Assembly (NCBI RefSeq): GCF_000223395.1 | Contig: NC_015931.1 | Span: forward strand, 450,001-482,000 | Length of the DNA: 32,000 nucleotides | Direction: 5' to 3' | From: Pyrolobus fumarii 1A | GTDB lineage: Archaea; Thermoproteota; Thermoprotei_A; Sulfolobales; Pyrodictiaceae | Shown: positions 927 through 25,977 of the stretch, in pieces | Position numbering within the stretch: position 1 is the first letter of the stretch | How the letters are laid out: every line of letters begins with the position of its first letter | The notes under the pieces: generated by a model | Databases searched by the model: none | What the model saw: the letters and a program-made list of their open reading frames with translations, nothing else | What the model was told of the DNA's origin: nothing | Made by a program: the position numbers and the translations under genes

Positions 927-1002
927 TAAGGGGCATGCTGAGGCTCTTGCCTAACTCTGGGCCCTTGGTCGTCGCTAGGGGGCGCGCTGAGGGTGTGCTC
1001 GC

Positions 1003-1488: not shown

Positions 1489-1569
1489 GGCGCCGCGCCC
1501 CCGTGGTAGCCTTTAGCGCGTCTCGCGCTTGTTGTGCCCTCTGCCGTGGCGTAGTCGCGCTCTAGATTA

Positions 1570-5518: not shown

Positions 5519-6694
5519 TCAGGGTTTGTGCCCATGCAGCTTGGCCACGGCTTCCTGGTATACCCTGTGCGGGTCTAGATCGAGGAGAGTCTCTACACCC
5601 TCCCGGTATCCCAGCTCTATCACCGTACGGTAGACTGGGTATTGGGGCTTGTAGCGTATGCCGTCGCGCCCCCGCGGGTACACCGGATAAACTATGTTGT
5701 AGGTTGTGAGTATCTGGCCTAGTGCGTGTAAGTGTGGCTCGCGGAGAGGCGCGATGTCGTTGTTTATGAGTTCGTAGGCTAGTCTTATCACTTCTCGCGG
5801 CTCAAGCTCACGGCGGAAGATCTCCGCGCTTAGCACGTTCCTAGCCCGGCTGAGCCCAGTCTCAACCTCCGCTATCCACATTGGCACACGTTCCTCCACC
5901 ACTGTGTTTCTGTCGAGCATGCACAACTCGGGCAGGTAGCCAGGCGTCCCGCCCACAAGACCCAGCACCTCGTCCACATCTACACCGCAGCTTTTCAAGC
6001 TCACATACTCCTTGTAGAGAGCCCTGAAATGATCGACATCCAGATGCTCGACTAGCATCCATGCCGTGGAGTACCCGTGGAGCTTTGACAAGACGAGGTC
6101 TGTAGCCGTGAAACCCTCGCTTACAGTTAACACTATAGTGATGTTCGAGTAGTGCGGATCCTTTGCTAGTAGGCCTGCGAGAGCCTCCAGGTCGTCAAGA
6201 GCATCGAGGTACTTGCTCGCCGGGTCGCTTTTATGCATGTAGCGGGGCAGCAGGTGGAACTCGTCTATAAAGAGGATTATCCGCGTGGAGGCATACTCGC
6301 GGATAACGTCTATGAGTACATCGATGGCATGGTATGTCAGCTGGAGTAGCCCAGTAGACCTATCGTCGAGGTCTTTGAGAACTTCCAGAAGCCGCTCGGC
6401 TAGATTCTTTTTATCGACTAGTAGACCTCTCGTCTCAAGCGCCCTGACAAGATGCTGACCCCGGAGCCGACGCGCATCCACGTACACGGCTGCTATGCGG
6501 CCACGCTCTTGTAGCCCCCGGAGCCAGTACCGTACGAGCTCGCTCTTCCCGACGCCACGCGGCCCATAGACTATAACCGTCCTATGAGAGAAGACGAGTT
6601 TATCCAGCCTCTCGAGCTCCACGAGCCTATCGTAGAAGGCTGTGCCCAGCCCCGTACGGTAACCCCGATCAACATACACCGCTACCATCTCCAC
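5519..6694 (-). CDS. Archaeal AAA+ ATPase (Arch_ATPase/PF01637-like, with a C-terminal DUF234-type winged helix)
   Basis: The N-terminus reads FYDRLVELERLDKLV...VIVYGPRGVGKSELV (Walker A). ILFIDEFHLL is Walker B. The length of 391 aa is typical of the family. Confidence 0.8.
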   Translation of the reverse strand: MEMVAVYVDRGYRTGLGTAFYDRLVELERLDKLVFSHRTVIVYGPRGVGKSELVRYWLRGLQERGRIAAVYVDARRLRGQHLVRALETRGLLVDKKNLAERLLEVLKDLDDRSTGLLQLTYHAIDVLIDVIREYASTRIILFIDEFHLLPRYMHKSDPASKYLDALDDLEALAGLLAKDPHYSNITIVLTVSEGFTATDLVLSKLHGYSTAWMLVEHLDVDHFRALYKEYVSLKSCGVDVDEVLGLVGGTPGYLPELCMLDRNTVVEERVPMWIAEVETGLSRARNVLSAEIFRRELEPREVIRLAYELINNDIAPLREPHLHALGQILTTYNIVYPVYPRGRDGIRYKPQYPVYRTVIELGYREGVETLLDLDPHRVYQEAVAKLHGHKP

Positions 6695-11091: not shown

Positions 11092-14000
11092 CTTTCAATT
11101 CATTCTTGGTTGTTTCGCAATACTACGTGGTGAAGAGGTGCCGCCAGAGTCAGGCATTGACCTTTCAATTCATTCTTGGTTGTTTCGAGAGCATGACGTG
11201 TGTGTCACAACCGGCAAGAAGGGCGTGTGTATCTTTCAATTCATTCTTGGTTGTTTCCAGCGCCTGCTCCTAGGCCGTGACCGTGACGAGGAGACGGTCT
11301 ATGTCACCCTTTCAATTCATTCTTGGTTGTTTCGGGTGTGGTAGCCGAACGATAGCCTGGCTAGTGATAGTGTGTACTTTCAATTCATTCTTGGTTGTTT
11401 CCCAAACTTGCCACCAATGCCTCAGCCAACACCAAAACCGTAAGCTTTCAATTCATTCTTGGTTGTTTCTCCCCGCGATTGTCGATACGCCGGGTGTCGT
11501 TACCGTTGGCTTTCAATTCATTCTTGGTTGTTTCCTGTGTCCGCGCCCGGGGACACCCCTCCCTCAGCATGTGCTCCTTTCAATTCATTCTTGGTTGTTT
11601 CCCCTTGTAGCGAGCCACGGCCAACACACCAACCCGATGCTAGTTCTTTCAATTCATTCTTGGTTGTTTCACCGCTCTACGCCACCCCCTACCTGAACGT
11701 CACGACCGGCTTTCAATTCATTCTTGGTTGTTTCACAAAACGCGCGATATATAGACGCGCGCGGCTATAATATAATATAACGCGACTTTCAATTCATTCT
11801 TGGTTGTTTCCTCGATAGCTCTACGAATCGCCTCTGAGCGATTTATTCCACGCTTTCAATTCATTCTTGGTTGTTTCACGGATACGTCTCGCACAGACGT
11901 ACCTCTATCGTCACTTTATCTTTTCTTTCAATTCATTCTTGGTTGTTTCGAAACCCTCTTGACGGGAATGTGGCAGGGCAAGTGGAACTTTCAATTCATT
12001 CTTGGTTGTTTCCTACCAACGTGCTGGTGGCCGCAGCCAGCCTAGCCCCGGACATCCTTTCAATTCATTCTTGGTTGTTTCGGCGCTGCTGGAAGCCGTG
12101 GTGGAGTCTATACCGGTGCTGGACCTTTCAATTCATTCTTGGTTGTTTCTACCCGACTGCCAGGGGAGTACACGTTTACGCCACTAGCGAGTCACCATGG
12201 GTCTTTCAATTCATTCTTGGTTGTTTCGCTGCTGCAGCCTTTATTGCACAGAACGGCTCGTAGCTTACCTTTCAATTCATTCTTGGTTGTTTCCTCGAGA
12301 GCCTCTATGAGAGCGTTAGAGGCACTAGCAAGCTCACAGTGCTTTCAATTCATTCTTGGTTGTTTCTCCAATTGCCAGGATCCTCGAGAAGGAGTTAGGT
12401 GAAGTAGCCACTTTCAATTCATTCTTGGTTGTTTCCTAGGAGTTGAAGGGTTCGAAGGCTGAGGCTGGGATGATACTTTCAATTCATTCTTGGTTGTTTC
12501 CTCGTAGGCGAGGTGTACCGCTGGCGTGCCCATCGCCATTGCCTCCTTTCAATTCATTCTTGGTTGTTTCGTAGGGGGTTGCGGGTACGCTGCATGGTTG
12601 ACGAGCCGCTGGGCTTTCAATTCATTCTTGGTTGTTTCCCGAGCCCGAAGGAGCTTGGCGCGCGCGTCTTCAAGGGCGACTTTCAATTCATTCTTGGTTG
12701 TTTCCGATGGCAACGAGGTTGACGTGCACTTCGACCACCTGGCGCACTTTCAATTCATTCTTGGTTGTTTCGCGTTGGAGAGGCTGCTGGAGGAGCGGAG
12801 GGTTGACGCGAGCTTTCAATTCATTCTTGGTTGTTTCGCGTAGACCTTCAGCAGCGCCCCCCTGCTGGCCGCCTTGCCCAGCTTTCAATTCATTCTTGGT
12901 TGTTTCCAGTAGCATGCCGCTATACTACGAAGTGTTCGTGAAGTGCCTTTCAATTCATTCTTGGTTGTTTCACGCAGTGTAACCCGGGAGAGTACGCGTT
13001 CAACGTGTCAGGTCAGCTTTCAATTCATTCTTGGTTGTTTCATCATGGACTTCTTCAACCGCGTGAGCGTCGTTGAGCATACTTTCAATTCATTCTTGGT
13101 TGTTTCCGGGGTACGTGGTCACAACCGCATCACCGTGTGTGCAGCGAACCTTTCAATTCATTCTTGGTTGTTTCAAACCAGCGCCGTGCCTCGGAAACGG
13201 TGATTATGTAGAAATAGCCTTTCAATTCATTCTTGGTTGTTTCCTACGAATAGCATAGGCGGGCACCGTATCTACCTACCCGAGTATGGCTTTCAATTCA
13301 TTCTTGGTTGTTTCGCAACCCGGCCTAGCTGTAGCCATGCTTGTATGCTTCGCCATATACCTTTCAATTCATTCTTGGTTGTTTCAATAGCTCCACTACT
13401 TGGTCAACGGCGTACCCCATCCACTTCTTTCAATTCATTCTTGGTTGTTTCAGGCGAAGCCCGACGAGGTTGCCGCCGAGATATCTGGTATCCCTTTCAA
13501 TTCATTCTTGGTTGTTTCTAGGATAGAGACGGTGAAGGGCAACGGGGCGTTCTTCGAGACTAGTGCTTTCAATTCATTCTTGGTTGTTTCTGATTCTCCC
13601 ACCCGGCTGAGCGGTGATGACGGCAGCCTCCACTCTTTCAATTCATTCTTGGTTGTTTCAGGGCAGTAGGATTAGCGCCAGGAGTGGCGCGAGGGTTATC
13701 AAAAACTTTCAATTCATTCTTGGTTGTTTCTACCGACGAGCAGACGGCTACGCCGCGCACCCAGCGAGAGGCTATCGACTTTCAATTCATTCTTGGTTGT
13801 TTCTCCGCGCGCGAGATCCATCTCTCCCGCCCCCGCGCTTCGGGTAGCTTTCAATTCATTCTTGGTTGTTTCTCGCTCGAGGAGGTGAGGAGGCTGGCCC
13901 AGGAGGGTAGCTTTCAATTCATTCTTGGTTGTTTCGTCGCGTAGTATACGCGCCGCGGTGAGCACCCCGAGCTGCTCCTTTCAATTCATTCTTGGTTGTT

Positions 14001-16549
14001 TCCTGGCCGTGGCCCCTCTCGCAATCGGCCTCAGCTTCCTCCCTTTCAATTCATTCTTGGTTGTTTCGGAGAAGATGGCGGTCTCAGGGCCGCCGCCCGC
14101 GAGGCGGTCCCACTTTCAATTCATTCTTGGTTGTTTCATAGGGGGTCGTCTGGCAACACGACCTTCGAGATAACGTTCAACGTGACGAGCTTTCAATTCA
14201 TTCTTGGTTGTTTCCATCGAGGCTCTGGACTACCTCGCCGAGATGATAGACTATAGGGCTTTCAATTCATTCTTGGTTGTTTCGCCAGGCCCGAGGCGGT
14301 GAGGTTTGACAACGTGGAGAGGAACGGACTTTCAATTCATTCTTGGTTGTTTCACCTTGGCGTCCGGCAGTGGCGGGGCCGACGGCCCCACCAGGCCCCG
14401 CCTTTCAATTCATTCTTGGTTGTTTCGGATTGTTCTAGCATCTGCTCCGAACCCAAATCATAATTCGCTTTCAATTCATTCTTGGTTGTTTCCGTGGCAT
14501 AGTGATAGTGGCAACGCATACTGACATATTCCACGTCGGTCCTTTCAATTCATTCTTGGTTGTTTCTACGGCAGGAGCGCCGAGCAGGTTGAGCTCGCGA
14601 GCCTACTTTCAATTCATTCTTGGTTGTTTCTCTAGCTCTACGCTCACGTTGAGGGGCACGGCTCTCACCCCCTTTCAATTCATTCTTGGTTGTTTCCATG
14701 GGCGCGGTTGAGACCTTCGAGGACAGGATAGCCTCGACTTTCAATTCATTCTTGGTTGTTTCTCTATGGTGGATGGCGAGGACGGCGACATCTGGTACGA
14801 GCTTTCAATTCATTCTTGGTTGTTTCCCGTGTCCTGGTCACCAACCAGCTCCTAGCCCCGGGCGTGCGCGTGCAGCTCTTCGTACTTTCAATTCATTCTT
14901 GGTTGTTTCACGAGGTGAGAGACTTCACAGAGATAGCCCGCATAGTAGCAAAAACGCCTTTCAATTCATTCTTGGTTGTTTCTGGAACCGCCGCCACCGT
15001 TGGCCTGACGCTATTCGTGATTGCTTTCAATTCATTCTTGGTTGTTTCTCCGGATCCCCGCACCGCGTATAGAGGGTATGCGCGGGGGTATAACTTTCAA
15101 TTCATTCTTGGTTGTTTCACATGGAGGAGCCAAGGCTCATAACCGCGATACGCGAGAATGCTTTCAATTCATTCTTGGTTGTTTCCAGAAGTCTTACGAC
15201 GGATACTAGTGGTGCAAATAATGCTTTCAATTCATTCTTGGTTGTTTCACTACACGACCCTGCAAATTCCCATCGTGTCATAGTGTCATACTTTCAATTC
15301 ATTCTTGGTTGTTTCGCGGTCTGGAGCCCGGTGCACGGATCTACATCTACGATGTCTTTCAATTCATTCTTGGTTGTTTCCTGGCCGCCGCACTTGGCGT
15401 TGAGGGTGTGGAGGCAAGCGCTTTCAATTCATTCTTGGTTGTTTCACGAGGCAGTGTGTTAGTGACGATAGGCCGGTGTGTAGCGAGACTTTCAATTCAT
15501 TCTTGGTTGTTTCTTAACAGCGTACTTCAGCGCTTCGCGGACGCCAACGCGTACCTTTCAATTCATTCTTGGTTGTTTCCGCGTTGGTCTTGTAGCTCTC
15601 TGCGCCGGCGTCCACGCGGGAGTCGCTTTCAATTCATTCTTGGTTGTTTCCCCGCATGGGTCTACCCCTCTCCCGAGATGCGCAAGGTAGCGACCCTTTC
15701 AATTCATTCTTGGTTGTTTCGTAGCTCTCGATCCACCCGCGGAACACAGGGTCGGCATGCTTTCAATTCATTCTTGGTTGTTTCCAGCCTCACTAGAATC
15801 TCGTATATCTCGCGGGCTTGTTGTATCTTTCAATTCATTCTTGGTTGTTTCGCTCGGTGTTCAAGTCGGTGGTCTACGACCGTTGCGGGTGCGTCCAGAC
15901 TTTCAATTCATTCTTGGTTGTTTCAGTGATATGCTAGTCGGTGATTTATGGTGATAATAAACGTGCTACTTTCAATTCATTCTTGGTTGTTTCGTACTGA
16001 AAAGTGTTGGTCTACTTGATAAGCTAAGAATGTATCTTTCAATTCATTCTTGGTTGTTTCAATACAAAACAATCAAGATATTGACGGGCCTGCCTTTAGT
16101 AAATGTAACTTTCAATTCATTCTTGGTTGTTTCTTGTAATGCGGGGTGAGGGCATGAAACTGAGAGAATTAGTACTTTCAATTCATTCTTGGTTGTTTCG
16201 ACGTCGTAATGCAGATCATGACGCGGTGGTTGCTAACGCCACTCTTTCAATTCATTCTTGGTTGTTTCTGCGGATAGAGGAGGGGAGGATAACGTTTCCG
16301 ATCGGGGTGCTTTCAATTCATTCTTGGTTGTTTCAAAACGATCCGTGTCGAGTCCGGCCTCGCGATAATCAAGGTACTTTCAATTCATTCTTGGTTGTTT
16401 CAGCGTCACGTCCCAGCTTCTCCTGCCGTAGGCGGTGTACGCTGGTTGGTCTGGACTTTCAATTCATTCTTGGTTGTTTCTCGCTAGGAAGGGCCGCGAG
16501 TGGGTGGCTGCCGTGAGTTATGGGCTTTCAATTCATTCTTGGTTGTTTC
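11092..16549 (-). CRISPR. CRISPR array 1: 80 repeats and 79 spacers, transcribed from the minus strand with the leader at the right end
   Basis: The 25-bp repeat CTTTCAATTCATTCTTGGTTGTTTC (plus strand) was located by hand at 80 positions from 11092 to 16525. Spacers are 38-58 bp. Orientation is set by the ATTGAAAG 3' end of the reverse-complement repeat and by the conserved leader at 16550-16858. The repeats look identical on inspection. Confidence 0.98.
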
Positions 16550-16584
16550 TGCATTCTTGCCGTGTGGTTATAGGGTCTCTCTTC

Positions 16585-16591
16585 TATTTAT
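16585..16591 (-). promoter_or_regulatory. TATA-box-like ATAAATA of the array-1 leader promoter
   Basis: On the minus strand, agaaaagaATAAATAgaag lies about 36-42 nt upstream of the first repeat, preceded by an A-rich BRE-like stretch. The same element sits at the same distance in the array-2 leader. Confidence 0.55.
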
Positions 16592-16661
16592 TCTTTTCTC
16601 TGTTGTCTTTGTTTCTGTGATTTGAGTGTAGTCGTGCCGGGCACAGATGGCCGTGGGGTAT

Positions 16662-16678
16662 GGTCCGCGGGTAGTACC
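16662..16678 (-). promoter_or_regulatory. Leader box GGTACTACC-N3-GGACC (proximal copy, array 1)
   Basis: The plus strand reads ggtccgcgggtagtacc. The box lies 112 bp from the first repeat, exactly as at 23698-23714. Confidence 0.5.
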
Positions 16679-16761
16679 GAGTTTATAAGCCGGGCAAGGG
16701 TTAAATACCGGATTACAGCGGTCGGGAGTACCTCACATCCACCCATGGAACCGTGAGCGAC

Positions 16762-16778
16762 GGTCCACCGGTAGTACC
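16762..16778 (-). promoter_or_regulatory. Leader box GGTACTACC-N3-GGACC (distal copy, array 1)
   Basis: The plus strand reads ggtccaccggtagtacc, exactly 100 bp from the proximal copy. Confidence 0.5.
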
Positions 16779-16854
16779 AGGGGTTAAAAGGATTACGCTG
16801 AGTGGTAGAAAAAGTTTTTCGTAGAGATGTGGTTTATGCTTTTCGGCTCTTGGC

Positions 16855-16938
16855 TTGTGTGGGTTGTGTTGTTTTGGTGGTTTGTTGGGTGTGTGTTGTG
16901 GTGTTGTTGGTTGTTTTGGTAGGTTTGGTGGTGGTGTT
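16855..16938. repeat. Low-complexity tract of about 85 bp made almost entirely of G and T (C/A on the other strand)
   Basis: The sequence ttgtgtgggttgtgttgttttggtggtttgttgggtgtgtgttgtggtgttgttggttgttttggtaggtttggtggtggtgttgt contains a single A and no C after 16854. It lies between the leader homology and the probable cas4 start. Confidence 0.8.
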
Positions 16939-17463
16939 GTGAAGGAGTTTGTGTGGTGTCCGGTTGCTGCGTGGCTCTCTGTTAACCTGGGTGTGTCTCC
17001 TCCGGTGACGCCTCGTATGCTTGAGGGTGTTGAGGGTCACTCGAGGGTGTTGGAGGTTTTGCATGGCTTGGGTTTCGGGGATGCCAGGTTGCTCCCTCCT
17101 CTCGCTTCTCGCAGGTGGCCTATCGTCGTGGCTCCCGACGCGTATAGCCCGTCGCGGGGGGCTCTCCTCGAGGTGAAGTGGGTTGCTAGGATAGACTCTA
17201 GGCTGTATCGTGTGCAGGCGCTGCTGTACGGGGTTGTTGCGCGGGAGAATGGGCTGCGTGTGGAGCGCGTGGGGCTTGTCGATGCTCATCGCGGCCGGGT
17301 GTTGTGGTTTGAGCTGGACTGGGGGTCGTTCAGTATCGTCGAGAGGCTGGTGGAGAGAGTGTTGGAGACCGTGTCTAGGCCGCTGCCTCCGCCGGTCACC
17401 CAGCCGCCCGAGAAGTGCCTGGCGTGCAGGTGGAGGAGGTGGTGCCCCGAGAGGAGCGTCTAG
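16939..17463 (+). CDS. cas4: Cas4 (RecB-like PD-(D/E)xK nuclease with a four-Cys cluster)
   Basis: There is an N-terminal Cys in FVWCPVAAWL (CPRKxWL-like), a nuclease core APDAY...ALLEVKW (D...ExK), the motif YRVQALLYGVV (QxxxY) and the C-terminal CLACRWRRWC. The ORF track opens at 16855, but that extension translates the GT tract, so the GTG at 16939 is the more likely start. Confidence 0.75.
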   Translation: MKEFVWCPVAAWLSVNLGVSPPVTPRMLEGVEGHSRVLEVLHGLGFGDARLLPPLASRRWPIVVAPDAYSPSRGALLEVKWVARIDSRLYRVQALLYGVVARENGLRVERVGLVDAHRGRVLWFELDWGSFSIVERLVERVLETVSRPLPPPVTQPPEKCLACRWRRWCPERSV

Positions 17464-17479
17464 GGTCTACGCCGAGGCT

Positions 17480-18670
17480 CTAGGCGCCTGGGATGCCCCT
17501 GCCGATCGCCTCGCGTAGCCACGTGGGGCCCGCCGCGCCGGTTAGGGACGCGAGCGCCGCCAACGCGACGCGGTTAGCTGGCGCGATGCTGTCTAGCGCG
17601 CCGCACGGCCCGCCGCCCCCGCACTCCCCTACCCCCTCCTCCACCTCTACCCTCGTATCCACCTCCCCACACTCCCTATTCCACTCGTAAACCCCTAGGT
17701 ACTCGCCACACCCCAGCTGGAGCACGTTCAGCCTGGTCAGGTGTTTTAGTAGCGAGTGGTGCTCGGGTGGCAGCGAGTAAGCCTCCTCGAGGGGCATGGG
17801 GCCCTCCACGAGGCGCATGAGCACGTCCCGCGCCTCGCCCCGCCGTGCAGCGGCCAGCGCCTCTAGCACGGCGCGCTTGTATGCTCTCAGCCTCCTGCGG
17901 TAAGCCGCCCTAGGCGAGCTGGACGCGAGCACCTCCTGGATCAACGCGGGGTGCCCGCCAACCACGTCTAGAAGCTCGTCATGCTCCCTCGCGTTGAGGG
18001 CCTCGGCTAGGCTCCTGGCGTCGACGCGCGTCATCTCGCCGAGGTAGAAGGTGTCGAGGTAGTCCACGCCGGGGGCCTCCCGGTACAGCGTCTCGTATAG
18101 CCCGTAGTCGCTGGTGACCAGGAGGGCGCGGAAGGAGTAAGGGTGCTGCTCTTGTAGCGTGGCGAGCAGCTTCACAAAGCTCCACACGTGGAGCCCTAGG
18201 CCCGTGATGAGGTTCTGCGCCTCGTCTATAACGAGGACGAGCTTCACACCCTCCCTCTCACACCTCTCGACGGCGGCGGACAGGGCGTCACCGATGACCT
18301 CCAGTGGCGTCCTAGGGGGCGCCACCCTACCCAGATCGACACCCATCTTCTCGCGCAGGATCGAGGCCACAGCCTCCACAAGAGCCCTCCTAGCGAGGCC
18401 GCCGACACCCTCCAGGCTAGACACGAGCCTCCCAGCCAACAGCCTAACGTCGCGCACCGGCTCGAGAAGCTGGAGGTATACCACCAGGTACGCCCGGGGG
18501 TCTAGACGCTCGCGGAGACTAGACGCCAGGGTAGACTTCCCGATGCCACTGGGCCCCACGAGCACCGTGACGAGCCGCGAGCCCCTCTCTTCGACAAGCT
18601 CCTCCAGCCTCCGCAGCTCAACCTCCCTACCAACAATCCTCAACCAGCCGCAACCCCCGGCGCGGTACAC
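17480..18670 (-). CDS. Archaeal AAA+ ATPase (Arch_ATPase/PF01637-like), the second copy in the window
   Basis: The N-terminus reads IVGREVELRRLEELVEE..LVTVLVGPSGIGKSTL (Walker A). LVLVIDEAQNL is Walker B. The length is 396 aa. Confidence 0.8.
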   Translation of the reverse strand: MYRAGGCGWLRIVGREVELRRLEELVEERGSRLVTVLVGPSGIGKSTLASSLRERLDPRAYLVVYLQLLEPVRDVRLLAGRLVSSLEGVGGLARRALVEAVASILREKMGVDLGRVAPPRTPLEVIGDALSAAVERCEREGVKLVLVIDEAQNLITGLGLHVWSFVKLLATLQEQHPYSFRALLVTSDYGLYETLYREAPGVDYLDTFYLGEMTRVDARSLAEALNAREHDELLDVVGGHPALIQEVLASSSPRAAYRRRLRAYKRAVLEALAAARRGEARDVLMRLVEGPMPLEEAYSLPPEHHSLLKHLTRLNVLQLGCGEYLGVYEWNRECGEVDTRVEVEEGVGECGGGGPCGALDSIAPANRVALAALASLTGAAGPTWLREAIGRGIPGA

Positions 18671-19487
18671 GGGACACCCAGAGCTAAACCAGCAATCCCC
18701 GGAGCGAGCCGCCGGGTCGCCACGCGCGACACCCGGCTCGAATACCGCGGTTGGCCGCCGACACGGTGGTCGGGGCCATGTGCATGGTGGAGGCTATGCC
18801 ATGCCCCACCCGCGAGTGGCTAGAGAGGATGTTGTCTGCCGCGCGTAGCGTCTCGAGGGGGACCCGAGACCTCAGCTAGACTCACGGTCGCCGGTCCCCC
18901 GCGGCGCGTCACGCGCCACCGAGACCACACCATGCTCACGATGGCGCGCTGGAGGGTAGAGCCAGGCCACATCGAGAGAATCTCGAGGCACTACCCGGGG
19001 CTAGCCAAGCTCATACTCGAAGCCCTCATCCCCAGAGACGAGCTGCACAGCCACGCTCATAGAAGAGACAGCCAACATGCCAAGCGTCGAAGCCATGCAC
19101 CCCCATAGAGCAGTGCCGCGAAGAGGGTTACGAAGGAGGGCATCGGGGCATCCTAGGCCCCGCAGAGCTTTGCCGTTTCAAGGCGTCTGGAGGTTGCGGA
19201 GACGCGGCGGGAAAACGCTAGCCGTAGAGGGGCTTGAGCAGCTCCACGGCCCGCGATCACCACACCGGGCGCTCTACGCGGTTCTCAGAAGCTCGCGTCA
19301 AGGCCCGAGAGCCGCCACGCCAAGCTAGAACAAGACCAAGGTCCAATGCCGCGGTGTAACGCATCCATCCGCCGAGAGGCTGCTAGCAGCCTGGCGCCTC
19401 GGGCCCCTCGGCCCCTACTTCGTCCCCCTGCACGGGGGGGCATCCGGGGCCTTCACAGGGGCTCCCTCATCCCGTACTATACTCACC

Positions 19488-20111
19488 GTGCGGCTCCGTT
19501 ATAGGTGTTTGAGTGTTGCCGGGCGCAAGGGCGGGGGCTTGAAAGCTGTCAAAGTCGCTTGTTTCGCCGATGAGGGTGGCTCCTTCACGCCATGTAGTAG
19601 CGTCTGCGTTGCTCTCGTGTGCTTCGAGAAGGACGCTAGCCTTGATGCCACGCCGGGCGGGCTCTACGAGAGGCTGGCTGGGCTCCTCGGCTGGCGCCGG
19701 GGCGAGCTTAAATGGAGGAGTGTGAAGAAGGCTGCGAGGCGCAGGGGCCTGGATGTATCGGGTGTTCTCGGGGCTATACTCGAGGCCAGCCTCTGTTACA
19801 GTGTCGTGAGGGGGCATGTGGGGTCTAGTAGTGAGACCGGCTTGGTGAAGGGGGAGCTTCTCCTCGAGGCAGTGTCAAGAGTCTCCGGGTGCATGCGCGG
19901 CTACAGCGTCTCGCTCGTTGTCGACGCTCACCTGGCTGGTAGCGGTACCGTTAGGCGTGCCGGGAGGGTACTAGGCGCGGGCTACACGAGGATCGGCGAT
20001 AGTAGGGTGTATCGCGGCGTTCAGCTTGCAGATCTCCTGGCGGGCGCGTGTAGCGAGGGTCTCCTCGACCCCGGCTGGGGCTGCCGCGTAGCCCCGACAA
20101 GCCGGGGGTAG
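19488..20111 (+). CDS. DUF3800-like protein (true start probably the TTG at 19539)
   Basis: VKVACFADEGGS resembles the N-terminal D-E-S/G-G motif. The C-terminal IGDSRVYRGVQLADLLAG resembles the DS....QlADl motif of DUF3800. The first 17 codons of the listed ORF look non-coding. Confidence 0.5.
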   Translation: MRLRYRCLSVAGRKGGGLKAVKVACFADEGGSFTPCSSVCVALVCFEKDASLDATPGGLYERLAGLLGWRRGELKWRSVKKAARRRGLDVSGVLGAILEASLCYSVVRGHVGSSSETGLVKGELLLEAVSRVSGCMRGYSVSLVVDAHLAGSGTVRRAGRVLGAGYTRIGDSRVYRGVQLADLLAGACSEGLLDPGWGCRVAPTSRG

Positions 20112-20122
20112 CTGGGCTGTAG

Positions 20123-20508
20123 CGCGGGTCGCCGATTTGCAAGTCTTTCGTCTCCTCGGCGGCGAGTGCCGGGTGTGTAGAGTCGGGGGAGATCGACTGT
20201 AAGGTTGACGCGCTGGCCGTGATCCGTGACCCGAGTGGATCGGTGACTATCGTGTCGGGGGCTATGGTCGGCGGGGAGTGTGTGGGGCCTTACCGTGCCC
20301 TGGCTAGCGACGTCCTAGACCCGGGTGTAGTCGGGCTCCTCGCCCGCGTGGCCCGCATCCTCGCTGATGCCGGGTGCCGGTGGTGACCCGTTCGAGCCTA
20401 GAGCGCGACTATACACTAGTCCCGAGCGGTCTCGCCGGCCGCGCCGTCCGGGCGCTCCGCGAGAACGGCTTCACGGTCCTGGGGGAGGGTAGGGCTAGGC
20501 TAGGGTGA
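20123..20508 (+). pseudogene. Decayed ACT-domain (ACT_7-like) gene with no start codon and one frameshift
   Basis: My translation gives ...DALAVIRDPSGSVTIVSGAMVGGECVGPYRALASDVLDPGVVGLLARVARILADAGCRW* (stop at 20384-20386). It continues in another frame as PVVTRSSLERDYTLVPSGLAGRAVRALRENGFTVLGEG* (stop at 20506-20508). Joined, this matches the ACT_7 pattern L.eaG(I/V)pv..iSt.erDYiLV....l..A..aL...Gf.v. The frame change sits at the ggg run near 20372-20374. Confidence 0.4.
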
Positions 20509-20785
20509 CTCCGGGTTTGGGCTTCGCGCCGGGTATGTTGGCGCCCTCGCCTATCACTATCCTCGTCTCCCACGTATGGTCGTGGACGAGTATGATGTCG
20601 ACCCGGTCCGTCACCGGGTCTATTATCCTCTTCAGCGCCGCCGCCACCTGCCTCGCCTTCTCCCTCCCGCCCCTCGCCGCATAGAGGCTCCTCTGGATCC
20701 TCTGGAAGCCCATGGAGAGTAGGAGCTTCGCAGCCCTATCCCTCTTGTAGTCGTCGCTTATGTCATAGGCGACTATCACTATCAC
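20495..20785 (-). CDS. cas2: Cas2
   Basis: MIVIVAYDISDDYKRDRAAKLL..GFQRIQRSLY is a classic Cas2 ferredoxin-fold N-terminus. The protein is 96 aa and lies directly downstream of cas1. Confidence 0.9.
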   Translation of the reverse strand: MIVIVAYDISDDYKRDRAAKLLLSMGFQRIQRSLYAARGGREKARQVAAALKRIIDPVTDRVDIILVHDHTWETRIVIGEGANIPGAKPKPGVTLA

Positions 20786-20787
20786 GG

Positions 20788-21807
20788 CTACCTCACCGCC
20801 TCGCGGAACGGCGCGTACATGGAGCCGCTGCGCACCGCCTGCGCGAGGAGCCTAGCGTGCCTCGCCATGTGCCTCTCTAGGGTGTCGCTCTTGCCCGTCG
20901 CCCCGTCCCTCACAACCCTCTCCCTCACCCACCTCGCGTACTCCGCTACCAGCCTCGAGCGCGTCTCCGCATCCATGAGGCCGGTTTGCGGGTCTCTCAC
21001 CGGCCTCCATCCGCCCGCGAGCAGCTTGTAGGCCAGGCGGTCGACTGCCGAGACCCTGAAGAGTTCCGCGAAGTCGTATACTAGGGTTGGGCGCCCGCTC
21101 CTATCCGCGTGGATGAAGCCCACGTAGGGGTCCAGCCCGTACATGACGAGGTAGCGGTGTACCCACGCGTAGAGGAGCGCGTAGAGGTAGTTGAGGATCG
21201 TGTTCATCGGGTCTGGGGAGTCGTGGTTCCTCCCCTGGAACCCCACGTCGCCCGGCAGGAGGGCGGCGAGCGCACCCCAGTACCTCCTCGCGGCGTGCGC
21301 CTCCAGCACACGCAGCCTATCGACGCTATCCTCGCCCAGAGCCCTCCTGGCGTACTCCTCGATCCTCTCGGCCTCGTCTCGAAGCCAGGCCTCGCCCCTC
21401 TCGAGCGCCAGGCTCCGGAGGAACCCAGCCTGGTTGAGCATCTTCCCGTAGACTATGCTCTTGGCCACCGCGAGCCTCGAGGAGGGGTCCGTAGCGGCCC
21501 TATACTGGGCTATCCTCGTCTCGCTCGTCCTGCTCACCCACGGGGGTGTGAGGGTAACCACCGGGTTGCCACGGGCGTCTAGGAACAGGATGTCTATCCC
21601 GAGCCTCGCCAGCCTCCTCACCGCCGAGCTCGTAATACTCACCTGCGACGTGACTATCACGATGCGGTCTACCTCCGCGATAGGCACGACGCTCCGGCTC
21701 CTACCCCCGCCATCCACAGACTCGACCACTATCGCCCCGCGGTGCACGCGCAGCCTGGCGCCCCTAGCGGAGACCACCAGCACCCGGGGAGCCCCGTCTC
21801 CTCCCAA
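20788..21807 (-). CDS. cas1: Cas1 integrase
   Basis: Cas1 motifs are present: LEAHAARRYW, MNTILNYLYALLY, GFIHADRSGRPTLVYDFAELFR. The length is 339 aa. Confidence 0.95.
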   Translation of the reverse strand: MGGDGAPRVLVVSARGARLRVHRGAIVVESVDGGGRSRSVVPIAEVDRIVIVTSQVSITSSAVRRLARLGIDILFLDARGNPVVTLTPPWVSRTSETRIAQYRAATDPSSRLAVAKSIVYGKMLNQAGFLRSLALERGEAWLRDEAERIEEYARRALGEDSVDRLRVLEAHAARRYWGALAALLPGDVGFQGRNHDSPDPMNTILNYLYALLYAWVHRYLVMYGLDPYVGFIHADRSGRPTLVYDFAELFRVSAVDRLAYKLLAGGWRPVRDPQTGLMDAETRSRLVAEYARWVRERVVRDGATGKSDTLERHMARHARLLAQAVRSGSMYAPFREAVR

Positions 21808-21822
21808 CCAGCGCCACCCCCG

Positions 21823-22692
21823 CTACGGGGCGCACACGAGGCGCATCGGGCACTGGTCGGGGCACCTAGGAGGCCTCCCAGGGTCCACCTGCGACACGAC
21901 GATCTCCGCAGCCTCGTCGCGCGCAGTGAGGAACTCGGCTCGCTCCTCGTTACCGATGTAGACGGGCTCCAGGGTCAACCTAGAGCCATCGCCGTTCACG
22001 AGTATGACGAGGCCATAGTCGAAGGGTATCTCGAGGCTAGCCTCCAAGGCCATCGCGTAGCCCGCGAGCGCCACCGGGTAGTCGCGGCTCCACCTCCCAT
22101 ACTTCACCTCGACGACAAGCCCGGGGGCCAGTGCATCCACCCGAAGCCTCCTGGAGAGCCCCAGCAGACCCCCGTCGACCTCATACTCTGTTATCCAGGG
22201 CGGCGCCCCAGTCTCCTCCATCCACTGGGCCCACGCGAACACCATCTTCTTGTACACGCGCGCCGCGAAGACGGCGATGCCGTCACCGTCTCCCTCTATA
22301 CCGGCAGACTCGAGTATCACGGAGGCCCTCTCACGCGCGCCGCCCACGAGCTCGGCCACGGCGTCCTCGGTGCTCTTCCCCTCGCCCAGGACGAGCCTAG
22401 AGAGGTCACGCGCAGCCAGCCTGAAAGCCTCGTGGACGATCCGCCCCTTGAGCATCGCCTCGGTGGGTTGCCCTCGGAGCCCGCGGACCCTCCGGAGCCA
22501 GAGGTCACGCCGGGTCGGGCAGTAGCGGTACGCGACCTCAGACACCCCGAGCCCCACGAAGTACCTCGGCTTTACCGGGCTACTGTGCCAGCTCCACCCC
22601 CGGTACCGCTCCTCGACGGGATCAGCAGCCCGCAGTAGGTGCAGCTTGCGGAGCGCTCGGGCGAGCGACGAGGCCGCGAGCAGAGCAGGCAC
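21823..22692 (-). CDS. csa1: Csa1/Cas4'-type Cas4-family nuclease
   Basis: Motifs present: YRYCPTRRDLWL (N-terminal Cys), VDALAPGLVVEVKYG (D...ExK), YPVALAGYAMAL, and the C-terminal RCPDQCPMRLVC. The size of 289 aa and the position upstream of cas1-cas2, divergent from csa3, match the type I-A csa1-cas1-cas2 arrangement. Confidence 0.7.
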   Translation of the reverse strand: MPALLAASSLARALRKLHLLRAADPVEERYRGWSWHSSPVKPRYFVGLGVSEVAYRYCPTRRDLWLRRVRGLRGQPTEAMLKGRIVHEAFRLAARDLSRLVLGEGKSTEDAVAELVGGARERASVILESAGIEGDGDGIAVFAARVYKKMVFAWAQWMEETGAPPWITEYEVDGGLLGLSRRLRVDALAPGLVVEVKYGRWSRDYPVALAGYAMALEASLEIPFDYGLVILVNGDGSRLTLEPVYIGNEERAEFLTARDEAAEIVVSQVDPGRPPRCPDQCPMRLVCAP

Positions 22693-22867
22693 CCAAAAGG
22701 TATTACCATATTAGGGGTGGTAACACCGCGCCACGTACACCCCCATCAAAGCGAATCATAAACCACGGTCCATCCACGGTAATACCGCTACTAGCCTGGA
22801 CCATGGGCTCTGAACGCCATCGGCCAGCCCCGGTAATAGCCGCCGGTACTACCAGACGCCCACAACG
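22693..22867. promoter_or_regulatory. Divergent csa1 / csa3 promoter region carrying GGTAnTAnC-type boxes
   Basis: Boxes found: ggtattacc 22699-22707, ggtaacacc 22719-22727, ggtaatacc(gctactagcctggacc) 22778-22802, ggtaatagc 22832-22840, ggtactacc 22845-22853. They are related to the leader boxes. Confidence 0.45.
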
Positions 22868-23542
22868 GTGGGACACATCGAGGCGCTACTCTACGTCATC
22901 CAGGCTAGCCCGGAGGGAGCCATACAACACGTGATCCGCCACCGCCACGCGGATACCGTGATAGTCGCGGTGCCAGCGCCGCCAACAAGAGCAGCACTAC
23001 TAGCCTACCACGAGATACGCCTGGTGGCCACGAGGCTAGGCTACCAGGACGCACACCTCATACAACTGCCGGTGGCCAACCCCCCGCTAGCCACACACGA
23101 AGCTTACAAGGCGGTGAGAGACTACAACGCGATACACGCCCTGATAAACGCCCCGCCAGCCATGGCGATACCCGTCTACACCGCACTACTCCTACACGCC
23201 CTGACGAACAACGCGCGCATCACCATAACGCTGGCCACGCTAGACCCCCAACAACCCTACACGACACTAACACTAGATCCAGTCACTACCATAATCACCG
23301 GGAGAGGCCTAGCCTCAACAAGGGCGCGGATAGCCCACCTGCTCCTACAGGAGGGCAGAACAACACCAACAAGAGCAGCACAACACCTAAACATATCAAA
23401 GACAACCGCAGAGAAACACCTCCGCTGGCTCAGGAACAAACAACTAGCAAACCAGGCACACGGCAACATCTACACACCAACACCATGGCTAAAACTACAC
23501 CACGAAATACACTGGAAACAAGCCAAGAGTCGAAAAGCATAA
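22868..23542 (+). CDS. csa3: Csa3-like transcriptional regulator (CARF-like N-terminal domain plus C-terminal winged HTH)
   Basis: The protein is 224 aa. The C-terminal IAHLLLQEGRTTPTRAAQHLNISKTTAEKHLRWLRNKQLA is a wHTH. The N-terminal beta-alpha-beta pattern (VIVAVPAP..., ALINAPPAMAIPVYTALLL) fits a Csa3 CARF domain with a degenerate loop motif. The gene is divergent from csa1-cas1-cas2, as in Sulfolobus. It has a GTG start. Confidence 0.7.
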   Translation: MGHIEALLYVIQASPEGAIQHVIRHRHADTVIVAVPAPPTRAALLAYHEIRLVATRLGYQDAHLIQLPVANPPLATHEAYKAVRDYNAIHALINAPPAMAIPVYTALLLHALTNNARITITLATLDPQQPYTTLTLDPVTTIITGRGLASTRARIAHLLLQEGRTTPTRAAQHLNISKTTAEKHLRWLRNKQLANQAHGNIYTPTPWLKLHHEIHWKQAKSRKA

Positions 23543-23597
23543 GCCAAGCCCTCACGAAATCCTTTTTCCACCCTTCAGCGTAACGCTTCTAACCCCT

Positions 23598-23614
23598 GGT
23601 ACTACCGGTGGACC
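23598..23614 (+). promoter_or_regulatory. Leader box GGTACTACC-N3-GGACC (distal copy, array 2)
   Basis: The box reads ggtactaccggtggacc, embedded in taacccctggtactaccggtggaccgt. Confidence 0.5.
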
Positions 23615-23697
23615 GTTGCCTATGGGACTATGACTGGTTGAGAGTAGCACAAGACCGCTGTAAACTCATACTTAAGCTTTTCTCTGCTTATAAACCC

Positions 23698-23714
23698 GGT
23701 ACTACCGCTGGACC
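23698..23714 (+). promoter_or_regulatory. Leader box GGTACTACC-N3-GGACC (proximal copy, array 2)
   Basis: The box reads ggtactaccgctggacc, embedded in taaacccggtactaccgctggaccgt. It is 100 bp from the distal copy and 112 bp from repeat 1. Confidence 0.5.
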
Positions 23715-23784
23715 GTCCCGCAAGGGCACCGTTGAAGCCCATTACACCTCCCCAACCACAGAAACAAAGACAACAGAGAAAAAG

Positions 23785-23791
23785 ATAAATA
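23785..23791 (+). promoter_or_regulatory. TATA-box-like ATAAATA of the array-2 leader promoter
   Basis: In gagaaaaagATAAATAggagag, the element lies 36-42 nt upstream of the first repeat at 23827. Confidence 0.55.
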
Positions 23792-23826
23792 GGAGAGAGA
23801 CCTTACAACCACACGGCAAGCGTGCA

Positions 23827-25977
23827 GAAACAACCAAGAATGAATTGAAAGGCGGAGGTAGAACCAGGCGCGTAGGAGGCGCCTGTAAAAACTCTGAAAC
23901 AACCAAGAATGAATTGAAAGCATTGACGTATCTAGGTTCCCACCCACAGACGTGCCCCTCTGATGAAACAACCAAGAATGAATTGAAAGGCAGCATGGGC
24001 ACCAACTCTGGGACTCGCTAAGGTGGAAGTTCTTGAAACAACCAAGAATGAATTGAAAGGTGGCGGTTCACCGCCGCATAAAGAAGGACAAAGCGAAGGC
24101 GAAACAACCAAGAATGAATTGAAAGGAGCGTCACGACCTCGCCGGCGTTCCTGGTCTCCGGGAGATGCAGAAACAACCAAGAATGAATTGAAAGTCAACC
24201 AGCTCATCAATCACCTTGAACTTCTCCTCAAGCCTCCTACGAAACAACCAAGAATGAATTGAAAGGACACTAATGACATTAGCGGGTTTGATTGACAGGT
24301 TGACACGGGAAACAACCAAGAATGAATTGAAAGAGACGGTGACCCGTGTGAGTGTAGAACTGATTACAGGCTCGTCTGAAACAACCAAGAATGAATTGAA
24401 AGCGGGATGATACAGGGCAGGAGGAGCAGCGGCCTGGGCTGCAGGGGAAACAACCAAGAATGAATTGAAAGCCCCCACTGGGCCCGGTTCGGGCGGTTAC
24501 CGCCTCATAGACGGAGAAACAACCAAGAATGAATTGAAAGTTTCGTTGTTCTTTTCCACGCTCATCCAACCCACCGAGTGACTCATCATGAAACAACCAA
24601 GAATGAATTGAAAGATTCCCGTTCCCAGGCCGGGGCTCGGGGCTAGGCTCTGGCTCGGGCTCCTGAAACAACCAAGAATGAATTGAAAGACATTCTCGAA
24701 CGCGTCTATGGGCACAATGAGATTGCGGAGTTCGGAAACAACCAAGAATGAATTGAAAGCGATCGCGAGGATAATCCCGTTACGTAAAGCAACGATGTGA
24801 AACAACCAAGAATGAATTGAAAGGCCTACGCATGAGCTCGGGGTGGGCCACGGCCAACACCACGGAAACAACCAAGAATGAATTGAAAGGATCAGCTTCA
24901 ACGTGATGATCCTGGCCTTGTCCACCTGGTCGCTGAAACAACCAAGAATGAATTGAAAGCTCTCGGGTATTTCTCGGCGCCGTAGTGCCCCTCGGGCTTG
25001 AAGCGCGTGAAACAACCAAGAATGAATTGAAAGAACCACCTTGCCGGTTACCACACCCGCGGTTATGATCTTGGAAACAACCAAGAATGAATTGAAAGTT
25101 ATCGGTGCCACGCCGCGCCACCCACCTGACACTACCACCGAAACAACCAAGAATGAATTGAAAGGAACTGGTGGCACGCATACTGGTACGCTCAGCAGTA
25201 CGCTCGAGAAACAACCAAGAATGAATTGAAAGCACAAGGGCTGGTACACTAGCGTCGAGCACTCTGGAGGCGGAGAAACAACCAAGAATGAATTGAAAGC
25301 TCGATAGTATTTTTCATAGCTTTCAGATTACTCTTGAGCTCGTGAAACAACCAAGAATGAATTGAAAGTATCGTCACTTTATCTTTTAGGTTTGGCGTTA
25401 CAGCCCAGTAGGAAACAACCAAGAATGAATTGAAAGGTGATACTCGCTGTGGGGATTAGCGTTGGGACGGCGCTCGCGGCGAAGAAACAACCAAGAATGA
25501 ATTGAAAGGCGTTATACCAGCGCCGATTGACGCGCTCGGGCGCTTCTAGGAAACAACCAAGAATGAATTGAAAGCATAACTGAGAACCCAGCGCTCAAGG
25601 CGTTGTACGAGCGTAACGAAACAACCAAGAATGAATTGAAAGTTGAGGGGCTTGCACTCTATATCCAGGTGAACCCTAGTCGATGAAACAACCAAGAATG
25701 AATTGAAAGTAATTCTCCTGGTAACGCCGCTCGCAACCCCCAGTGTAGCTCCTGAAACAACCAAGAATGAATTGAAAGTTTTAGCTAGGAGCGGCCACGC
25801 TGCAACGTATTGCGATATGAGAAACAACCAAGAATGAATTGAAAGGATGACGATTGATATATGGCGGCGTGCGCGGTATGGAGAGGAAACAACCAAGAAT
25901 GAATTGAAAGCAGTCGCCGTCGTACGGCTGGTGGTTGATGTAGCCGCGTGGGGAAACAACCAAGAATGAATTGAAAG
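23827..25977 (+). CRISPR. CRISPR array 2: 32 repeats and 31 spacers, transcribed from the plus strand
   Basis: The repeat GAAACAACCAAGAATGAATTGAAAG was located by hand at 32 positions (23827 to 25953). Spacers are 39-50 bp. The leader is immediately upstream. Confidence 0.98.

Follow-up and report, generated by a model that had tools for sequence, protein, structure and literature searches.

The window analysed here, the whole 32-kb stretch of the Pyrolobus fumarii 1A genome, contains two diverging CRISPR arrays and, between them, the adaptation cassette of a type I-A system (cas4, cas2, cas1, csa1 and csa3). All 112 repeats, 80 in array 1 and 32 in array 2, are identical. The crRNA-sense repeat GAAACAACCAAGAATGAATTGAAAG lies on the minus strand in array 1, and the 8-nt 5'-handle ATTGAAAG (repeat sense) is directed away from both leaders. 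With the same repeat in divergent arrays and cas1, cas2, cas4, csa1 and csa3 in between, the locus is a pair of inverted CRISPR loci, and such a two-array layout around a type I-A adaptation module is already known from other archaea, e.g. Sulfolobus. The arrays have no spacer in common in the same orientation; the sole match is 19 nt long and runs in the opposite orientation. An Rfam search of the whole window gave no match. The genes and arrays are as follows:

11092..16549, minus strand: CRISPR array 1, 80 identical 25-nt repeats and 79 spacers of 38-58 nt
16939..17463, plus strand: cas4, encoding a short Cas4 with RecB-type motifs and four conserved cysteines
17480..18670, minus strand: archaeal ATPase_2/STAND-like gene
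20495..20785, minus strand: cas2
20788..21807, minus strand: cas1
21823..22692, minus strand: csa1
22868..23542, plus strand: csa3 (Pyrfu_0502), encoding a divergent regulator with CARF and winged-helix domains
23827..25977, plus strand: CRISPR array 2, 32 identical repeats and 31 spacers

By sequence comparison, Pyrfu_0502 is a divergent member of the Csa3 family with a predicted N-terminal CARF/Rossmann-like domain and a C-terminal wHTH. It aligns to TIGR01884 over its full length (E=7e-10), at 38.6 bits and thus under the 60.2-bit cutoff; among Pfam families it scored 22.6 bits with Csa3_N (cutoff 27) and 23.4 bits with HTH_DeoR (cutoff 21). A profile built from eight Csa3 homologues matched the Csa3 structures 6W11, 2WTE and 6WXQ in the PDB at positions 23-196 (E=4-7e-6). 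Likewise, the product of 16939-17463 carries the RecB-type nuclease motifs and four cysteines expected of a Cas4. D95, E106, K108, Q121, Y125, C188, C191 and C197 are invariant in the alignment, the N-terminal cysteine (WCP) is present in every full-length member and the C-terminal cysteines form a CX2CX5C motif. The match to TIGR00372 reached E=5.8e-14 (52.3 bits, cutoff 65). The start of cas4 is uncertain, being either GTG at 16939 or TTG at 16885.

The two leaders are inverted homologues with four conserved blocks

An earlier note on this DNA, made from the sequence itself, had proposed that the arrays are preceded by inverted, colinear leaders of equal length. The elements in question are:

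16550..16858, minus strand: leader 1, gap-free inverted homologue of 23518-23826
23518..23826, plus strand: leader 2 homology unit, comprising the csa3 3' end (25 nt) and the intergenic leader (284 nt)
16550..16619, minus strand: repeat-proximal block, 90% identical to leader 2, holding GAAAAGAATAAATAG
16834..16858, minus strand: distal block, repeating the final 25 nt of csa3 in inverted orientation with 24/25 identities

Ungapped alignment bore this proposal out: 234 of 309 positions (75.7%) are identical, with 75 mismatches and no indel, and the repeat-proximal 70 bp agree at 63 positions (90%), as the note had estimated. Its identical blocks of 28 and 26 nt came out as longest exact runs of 27 and 26 nt. 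The note had also expected the similarity to exceed low complexity, and blastn gave E=6.5e-81, by which chance or low complexity as the origin of the leader repeat is ruled out; the similarity has a sharp end at 16858/23518. Including the first CRISPR repeat, the inverted-repeat arms (16525-16858 and 23518-23851) span 334 nt and are 78% complementary. Each homology unit directly adjoins the first repeat of its array, upstream with respect to crRNA transcription, and the 76% identity over 309 bp between the leaders of two arrays with one repeat and one Cas1 is the kind of conservation expected of crenarchaeal type I-A leaders. The proximal ~180 bp can further be aligned to the leader of L005, a near relative, at 61-65% identity. 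That leader 1 is a copy of the csa3-adjacent leader 2 is supported.

The mismatches are not spread evenly. Their variance in 15-nt windows was not reached in any of 20000 permutations, in line with the claim that blocks were retained amid free divergence. Counted from the repeat, positions 1-70 are 90%, 121-141 95%, 211-260 88% and 285-309 96% identical, and the segments between these four blocks are 52-62% identical. The clustering, together with motifs that are conserved across relatives, agrees with the further claim that the blocks point to functional sites, and the absence of any indel between the leaders suggests that their spacing is constrained. The outermost block corresponds, as the note had it, to the last codons and stop of csa3 (...WKQAKSRKA*; 16834-16858 vs 23518-23542).

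The proximal block of leader 1 contains a match to GAAAARNATAA at 16588-16598 and a TGCA junction with repeat 1. The BRE/TATA-like sequence GAAAAG-N-ATAAATAG lies at about -45 of the repeat and is conserved in L005. From its position, the proximal block may comprise a putative pre-crRNA promoter and an integration-site signal. A second copy of the motif, GAAAAGCATAA, occurs in the distal block of leader 1 (16834-16844), and leader 2 has GAAAAGCATAA at 23532-23542 and GAAAAAGATAA at 23778-23788. GAAAARNATAA thus has only four matches, one in the proximal and one in the distal block of each leader, a count that is no independent test as the pattern was drawn up from these four sites themselves. 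About 20 nt past the BRE/TATA-like GAAAAGCATAA of the distal block lies a conserved T5 run. Predicted RNA structure of the distal block was no better than that of shuffled sequences, and among the leaders compared the block is absent from those of L004 and L005.

A palindrome is common to the leaders and the csa1-csa3 intergenic region

The palindrome GGTANTACC has seven exact matches in the 32 kb, where 0.39 are expected, and all are limited to the two leaders and the region between csa1 and csa3:

16662..16678, minus strand: palindrome module 1 of leader 1, GGTACTACC-N3-GGACC at -129 from repeat 1, preceded by TTATAAAC
16762..16778, minus strand: palindrome module 2 of leader 1, GGTACTACCGGTGGACC at -229
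22693..22867, no strand assigned: divergent csa1-csa3 intergenic region with three exact copies of GGTANTACC (22699, 22778 and 22845)

The two palindromes of leader 1 are exactly 100 bp apart, a spacing that is also found in leader 2 (23598-23606 and 23698-23706). Two further copies with one mismatch (22719 and 22832) lie between csa1 and csa3. All relatives examined have GGTANTACC between csa1 and csa3, and the L004, L005 and L120 leaders contain it as well; the palindrome at -229 is absent from the L004 and L005 leaders that we compared. By analogy with known systems (see below), GGTANTACC is a predicted Csa3 operator. The promoter and operator assignments, and with them the presumed binders of the motifs and positions of transcription start, rest on motif position and analogy.

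Relatives with a single array

Five single-array MAG contigs (L013, L119, L120, L016 and L017) carry cas2, cas1 and csa1 in one direction and csa3, cas4, leader and array in the other. Their Cas1 (57-68% identity), Csa1, Csa3 (26-34%) and Cas4 (about 50%) are homologous to those of P. fumarii, and they have in common with it a similar repeat, GAAACAACCATCAAAGAATTGAAAG, with the junction GTGCA followed by GAAACAAC, GGTANTACC between csa1 and csa3, and a sense strand that is A/C-rich toward the array. They differ in that cas4 separates csa3 from the leader, with a 4-nt overlap at the csa3 stop, and no second array was found on the cas2 side in L013 and L119; more distant relatives with this gene order have a single array, and housekeeping genes lie beyond cas2. 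In P. fumarii and its nearest relative (L005/L012), by contrast, csa3 adjoins the leader and cas4 is found elsewhere, the order in L005 being csa3, a 285-nt leader and the array. The 244 nt upstream of cas4 in L012 showed no significant similarity to any leader, and the neighbours of cas4 and cas2 in the relatives are not homologous to those in P. fumarii, so that synteny outside the core cassette is uninformative.

Searching the genome collection with Csa3 yielded no confirmed relative, and with a Cas1 alignment distant bacterial Cas1 loci only. The leader pattern GYTTATAARCYNGGTAYTAC, which is too degenerate for a metagenome scan, gave 101 matches in metagenome DNA; none of the 80 loci fetched had a related leader or Csa3, Cas4, Csa1 or Cas1, and one repeat-like match with up to 6 mismatches occurred in L036 (41% GC).

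Origin of leader 1

We consider it probable that leader 2 of this type I-A locus is the original and that leader 1 is an inverted copy cut 25 nt inside csa3, in which functional blocks were kept. This reading starts from what is observed: the homology and where it ends, the division into blocks, and where the motifs occur and relatives conserve them. Leader 2 directly follows csa3, as in the closest relatives, and would be the ancestral arrangement. An inverted copy of it, together with at least one repeat, would have become leader 1, and with the outer breakpoint 25 nt inside csa3 the tail of the gene would have been carried along. On this simpler reading, a full second csa3 need never have existed. 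After copying, the spacer-like segments would have diverged to 52-62% and the four blocks would have been kept at 88-96%.

The csa3 stop lies 284 nt from repeat 1 in P. fumarii and 285 nt in L005, and this matched distance argues for copying from leader 2 to leader 1. Were the direction reversed, the 25 nt would have belonged to the leader originally and the csa3 frame would have extended into it after losing an earlier stop. The closest homologues do differ in the C-terminal tail of Csa3 (...HHEIHWKQAKSRKA vs ...YHETTKKKQK vs ...YQETRRTGKKTQR), and the promoter-like motif of the 25-nt block recurs in the proximal leader. However, the aligned C-termini of the P. fumarii and L005 Csa3 proteins are also at most one residue apart, and the near-equal distances and protein ends indicate a stop position older than the split of the two, so that the reverse direction is very improbable.

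The earlier note had favoured inverted duplication of a whole csa3-leader-array unit, with subsequent loss of the second csa3 and the C/A-rich tract at 16855-16938 as its possible decayed remnant. The sequences concerned are:

16859..16938, no strand assigned: low-complexity tract, G/T on the plus and C/A on the minus strand, upstream of or at the 5' end of cas4
16834..17289, minus strand: spurious ORF, antisense to cas4, with the C-terminus QAKSRKA

The inverted leader homology stands; duplication of the whole unit is not supported, the similarity stopping at the 25 nt. Leader 1 does have the csa3 tail, and tract and csa3 are C/A-rich on the corresponding strand, the tract having 4 T and 0 G in 91 nt when read on the minus strand. 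Past the tail, identity in register is 43% vs 36% expected from shared C/A composition (p=0.09); leader segments of the same age, presumably unconstrained, still keep 52-62%. Local DNA alignment of the tract with csa3 was likewise negative (p=0.26). A Csa3-family HMM, run on six-frame tiles of the window, found nothing but the true csa3 and had no match in any frame of 16500-17600. Csa3 residues 28-212 do align colinearly with the cas4 antisense frame that has the phase of the tail, scoring 55 against 38.3±6.4 for shuffles. With p=0.02, reached in one of the three frames, this protein alignment is marginal; profile search gave it no backing and we treat it as compositional. Only 80 nt are free between the csa3 tail and cas4, the remainder being conserved cas4, and the C/A richness is regional, mirror-symmetric and also present beside the leaders of relatives. 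The lack of common spacers points the same way, if weakly, given that old spacers could have been lost. None of the relatives examined, none of which has both flanks assembled, has a second csa3. Duplication of the full unit is hence unlikely, and the tract, which adjoins a real cas4 and has no detectable csa3 homology, finds no support as a csa3 relic in the ungapped, local DNA and profile comparisons. The ORF at 16834-17289 is spurious, as the note had recognized; it has no Pfam match and runs antisense to the conserved cas4.

Recurrent gene conversion between two old leaders might also have kept them partly alike, the blocks then being recent conversion patches and not functional sites. The identity of all 112 repeats, the patchy identity pattern and the greater similarity of the leaders to each other (about 74-76%) than of either to L005 (61-65%) would fit such a history. 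The blocks, however, coincide with motifs that other species keep as well and that recur in the csa1-csa3 promoter region, the distal block is at the outermost limit of the homology, a position in which conversion tracts are difficult to resolve, and the absence of indels indicates constraint on spacing. We give this reading a small chance; it and the copying of leader 2 are not mutually exclusive.

Comparison with Sulfolobus and a possible function of the blocks

Sulfolobus islandicus has two identical leaders. The promoter of csa1 contains an imperfect palindrome to which Csa3a binds; this regulator also binds the leader, at a motif spanning -130..-103, and activates both adaptation genes and crRNA transcription (PMC4333418, PMC5587795, PMC9456107). 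P. fumarii resembles S. islandicus REY15A and loci C-D of S. solfataricus in the 24-25-nt crenarchaeal repeat ending in ATTGAAAG, in leaders of 200-400 bp with low-complexity stretches and conserved motifs, in csa3 being divergent from csa1-cas1-cas2 and in a leader regulator site near -130, which in P. fumarii is predicted only (PMC5587795, PMC4333418, PMC4390879). In contrast to the identical Sulfolobus pair, the P. fumarii leaders are only 76% identical, cas4 lies apart from the csa1-cas1-cas2 operon beside leader 1, and one leader includes 25 nt of csa3. GGTANTACC, the candidate operator, also shows no sequence relationship to the site of Csa3a in S. islandicus, TTCNTAACTAAANANGGNNNGAAA (PMC4333418). 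As in the Csa3a-leader model (Liu et al. 2017, 2022), a distal leader motif is combined with a putative proximal Cas1/promoter region, and one motif is found in both the adaptation-gene promoter and the leader. Binding, activation and the hand-over between Cas1 and Csa3 were demonstrated in S. islandicus only and are suggested for P. fumarii by motif distribution.

Based on this analogy, each array would be driven by its own ~309-bp leader. The proximal 70 bp, with GAAAAG-N-ATAAATAG and the TGCA junction, would act as pre-crRNA promoter and Cas1-Cas2 integration signal, and the modules TTATAAAC/TTYTAAC followed by GGTACTACC-N3-GGACC at -129 and -229 may be Csa3 operators. Such operators in the leaders and the csa1-csa3 region would couple adaptation-gene expression to both arrays, for which experiments on Csa3a in S. 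islandicus are the precedent. The distal block at the csa3 stop probably works as a boundary of the leader, be it as a second promoter or as a site for some factor, with the nearby T5 run as the probable csa3 terminator.

A duplication with a breakpoint 25 nt inside csa3 is ordinary genome history. The resulting pair of leaders, in turn, is a natural conservation experiment, with two copies in one cell that have drifted to about 55% identity at free positions, against near 90-96% in the four kept blocks and a fixed spacing, and the block map indicates candidate sites of function in a leader active above 100 °C. GGTANTACC is a concrete candidate operator for a very divergent Csa3, and the coupling of adaptation-gene control to crRNA transcription, known from Sulfolobus, may be older and wider.

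Strand composition beside the leaders

The third-position AT skew is +0.86 for csa3 (sense toward array 2) and -0.91 for cas4 (antisense toward array 1), compared to -0.54 to +0.53 for the other 14 genes of the window. In relatives with cas4 directed to the array, the skew of cas4 is +0.89 to +1.0; the flip in sign follows the changed orientation of cas4 relative to the leader. A mirror-symmetric A/C bias of the array-directed strand flanks both P. fumarii leaders and those of the relatives. It is conceivable, if rather doubtful, that CRISPR leaders in this group of hyperthermophiles are flanked for ~0.5-0.7 kb by a near-pure A/C array-directed strand at free sites, regardless of gene and orientation. 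If so, a leader-anchored, strand-asymmetric mutational process or selection would be able to overwrite codon usage, with R-loops or continual transcription in one direction at >100 °C, or repair synthesis following spacer integration, as candidate causes, and the C/A tract would be the most extreme expression of the bias and no gene remnant. As a by-product of the analysis, this composition bias is more curious than the leader pair.

Two arrays with one repeat flank the adaptation genes

The locus consists of two CRISPR arrays in opposite orientation, the genes between them and an interference module (window positions):

11092-16549: CRISPR array 1, opposite orientation to array 2, 80 repeats
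about 16939-17463, plus strand: cas4, between the arrays
17480-18670, minus strand: archaeal ATPase_2 gene (STAND-like), between the arrays, within the adaptation cassette, between cas4 and cas2
19488-20111, plus strand: ORF without family, between the arrays
20495-22692, minus strand: cas2, cas1 and csa1, between the arrays
22868-23542, plus strand: csa3, divergent from cas2/cas1/csa1
23827-25977: CRISPR array 2, opposite orientation to array 1, 32 repeats
right of array 2: type I-A interference module (Cas3 HD, Cas3 helicase, Csa2)

The window is from Pyrolobus fumarii 1A: translation of 22868-23542 gives a 224-aa protein that matches Pyrfu_0502 without a difference. Both arrays use a single 25-nt repeat (GAAACAACCAAGAATGAATTGAAAG in crRNA sense), whose 112 copies are all identical, trailer-end repeats included, with neither a degenerate terminal repeat nor a variant copy in either array; the genome paper for strain 1A gives 'CRISPR repeats 0' (PMC3156397). 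The orientation of the crRNA-sense repeat indicates that both arrays are transcribed outward from the 7.3-kb segment between them. Arrays 1 and 2 have no same-orientation spacers in common. Counted from the leader end, array 1 spacer 68 and array 2 spacer 23 match perfectly over 19 nt in opposite orientation, probably representing overlapping protospacers on the two strands of one invader. Near array 1 lies a HerA-like helicase gene (3255-5288, plus strand), and two paralogous archaeal ATPase_2/STAND-like genes (5519-6694 and 17480-18670, both minus strand) are found around this array. The about 800 bp from the second of these to the ORF at 19488-20111 (18671-19487) are without a convincing ORF or family match.

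The two leaders are an inverted duplication with four conserved blocks

A repeat search returned inverted-repeat arms at 16525-16858 and 23518-23851. Without the CRISPR repeat, leader 1 (16550-16858, minus strand) and leader 2 (23518-23826, plus strand) align gap-free over 309 positions with 75.7% identity, 75 substitutions and no indels (blastn, E=6.5e-81), confirming the inverted 309-bp leader repeat that the earlier note had described. The two longest stretches without a mismatch span 27 and 26 nt; the note's 26-nt block is thus reproduced, while its 28-nt block measures 27 nt. Mismatches are strongly clustered and leave four blocks (d, distance from the first repeat), separated by segments of 52-62% identity:

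d=1-70: conserved block, 90% identity, as previously estimated and now obtained by formal pairwise alignment
d=121-141: conserved block, 95% identity
d=211-260: conserved block, 88% identity
d=285-309: conserved block, 96% identity (24/25)

The distal 25 nt form the 3' end of csa3; leader 1 does carry the proposed copy of the csa3 tail, and the minus-strand ORF 16834-17289 terminates in QAKSRKA. Clustered mismatches and the motifs within the blocks also bear out the suggestion that the retained blocks point to functional sites. The same sequence was assembled independently from short reads in L001 (Logan assembly of SRR064175), which corresponds to window 16760-23639; its ends fall inside both leaders, as expected with a long inverted repeat.

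Homology stops inside csa3

The earlier note had proposed that a whole csa3-leader-array unit was duplicated, that the second csa3 was then lost and that the C/A-rich tract beyond leader 1 is its remnant. Past position 309, in-register identity is 43%, compared to 36% predicted by the shared C/A-rich composition (p=0.09). Local alignment of whole csa3 with the reverse complement of 16859-17300 did not exceed shuffles (p=0.26), and Csa3 gave a marginal colinear protein alignment with one antisense frame (p=0.02). A profile of eight Csa3 homologues run against six-frame tiles of the window matched the true csa3 only, and a second csa3 was seen in none of the relatives examined. Given the composition-level identity, the profile result and the lack of same-orientation shared spacers, we see the outer edge of leader 1 as a sharp breakpoint in the sequence, without a decayed gene. 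The duplication, its direction and the functional blocks are thus retained from the earlier interpretation; the lost second csa3 and its remnant are not.

Directly downstream of the tract at 16859-16938 is a genuine cas4, whose product shares 77% and about 50% identity with homologues and keeps the Cas4 cysteines and nuclease motifs; the Cys/Gly/Val-rich N-terminal extension of the long cas4 ORF has no counterpart in any homologue. With a conserved cas4 at the site, the minus-strand ORF 16834-17289 is spurious, as had been supposed.

Outside the arrays, keto/amino skew in the window is strongest at the distal border of each leader, positive for leader 1 (+0.56 at 16801-17100) and negative for leader 2 (-0.45 at 23251-23550). 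Third-position AT skews were as follows:

csa3 (P. fumarii): +0.86
cas4 (P. fumarii): -0.91
other 14 window genes: -0.54 to +0.53
cas4 of relatives, array-pointing: +0.89 to +1.0

In the more distant contigs L013 and L119 the skew maximum lies at the leader border too, and the leader of L120 itself holds long C/A runs. As this pattern extends from the window genes to these relatives, C/A richness characterizes the region and follows the orientation toward the array, and is not the signature of a decayed csa3. The bias is mirror-symmetric by both leaders, the array-pointing strand being A/C-rich and overriding codon usage:

16801-17600 and 22800-23600 of the window: bias regions
10050-10650 of L013, 1-750 of L119, and L012: bias regions

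Relatives point to leader 2 as the original

In the nearest relative (L005; Csa3 60%, Cas1 79%), cas2-cas1-csa1 and csa3 are followed by a 285-nt leader and an array. The distance from csa3 stop to repeat is 285 nt there and 284 nt in P. fumarii, which indicates that the csa3-adjacent leader 2 represents the original context and speaks against a simple extension of csa3 into a pre-existing leader. In five more distant contigs (L013, L016, L017, L119 and L120), csa3 and cas4 share 4 nt and are followed by the leader and then the array, and a second array is absent in the more distant relatives wherever the other side is visible. Judged by these arrangements, two arrays with cas4 next to the second leader are a derived state of the P. 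fumarii lineage. In L012, also from the nearest relative, the 244 nt upstream of cas4 matched no leader. The cas4 neighbour there (884-1756, minus strand) encodes a 290-aa protein that has no Pfam match, is unrelated to the P. fumarii neighbour and ends in a C-terminal region with GIGSSRATGFG, similar to the glycine-rich loop of Cas6. In the MAG contig L120, cas4 contains a long poly-C run and a frame disruption (about 520-600), probably an assembly artefact.

A palindrome common to leaders and the csa1-csa3 region is a candidate Csa3 operator

The palindrome GGTANTACC has seven copies in 32 kb, where 0.39 would be expected. Each leader carries two copies at -129 and -229, exactly 100 bp apart in both, each preceded by TATA-like TTATAAAC or TTYTAAC and followed by N3-GGACC; the other three lie in the divergent csa1-csa3 intergenic region, with none elsewhere in the window. 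All relatives examined have the palindrome in this intergenic region, and L004, L005 and L120 have it in their leaders with one mismatch. Within each leader, a module of TATA-like element, GGTACTACC and GGACCGT forms an internal direct duplication of ~100 bp:

23585-23616 and 23686-23716: duplicated module of leader 2
16751-16790 and 16651-16678: duplicated module of leader 1

As the leaders of L004 and L005 have one such module only, the internal duplication is older than the split of leaders 1 and 2 but seems specific to the P. fumarii lineage.

In S. islandicus, Csa3a has two kinds of target, an imperfect palindrome in the csa1 promoter and a motif at -130..-103 in the leader; it switches on the adaptation genes as well as crRNA transcription and passes Cas1 on to the leader-proximal end (PMC4333418, PMC5587795, PMC9456107). 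By analogy, we take GGTANTACC as the predicted operator for the divergent Csa3 of P. fumarii; through it, a single regulator would control the adaptation genes together with both arrays.

About 45 bp upstream of the repeat, the proximal block contains GAAAAG-N-ATAAATAG, kept in L005, and the junction GTGCA|GAAACAAC is common to all relatives; this block may act as the promoter and as the signal for integration. In the distal block GAAAAGCATAA recurs, and its TAA forms the stop codon of csa3. GAAAARNATAA, a pattern defined post hoc, occurs at four places in the window, in proximal and distal blocks only. A T5 run, read from the sequence, follows the distal motif at equal distance in both leaders and is a putative csa3 terminator. 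Without a coding role in leader 1, the tail copy has still kept 24/25 positions, for which a back-of-envelope, post hoc estimate gives a roughly 0.7% chance under neutral drift of one copy. We therefore think that it is functional DNA and not a passive passenger. Alternatively, gene conversion could have produced this identity. If functional, the distal block would serve the leader as a boundary element, with a second promoter and a factor-binding site as the two options.

Type I-A adaptation modules flanked by two arrays with similar leaders are known from Sulfolobales, whose leaders are 200-400 bp long with low-complexity stretches, conserved motifs and Csa3 sites (PMC4390879, PMC5587795). 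The present locus is a new, more diverged Pyrodictiaceae example of this layout. It differs from the Sulfolobales paired loci in its candidate operator, in the relocation of cas4 and in a duplication whose breakpoint lies within csa3.
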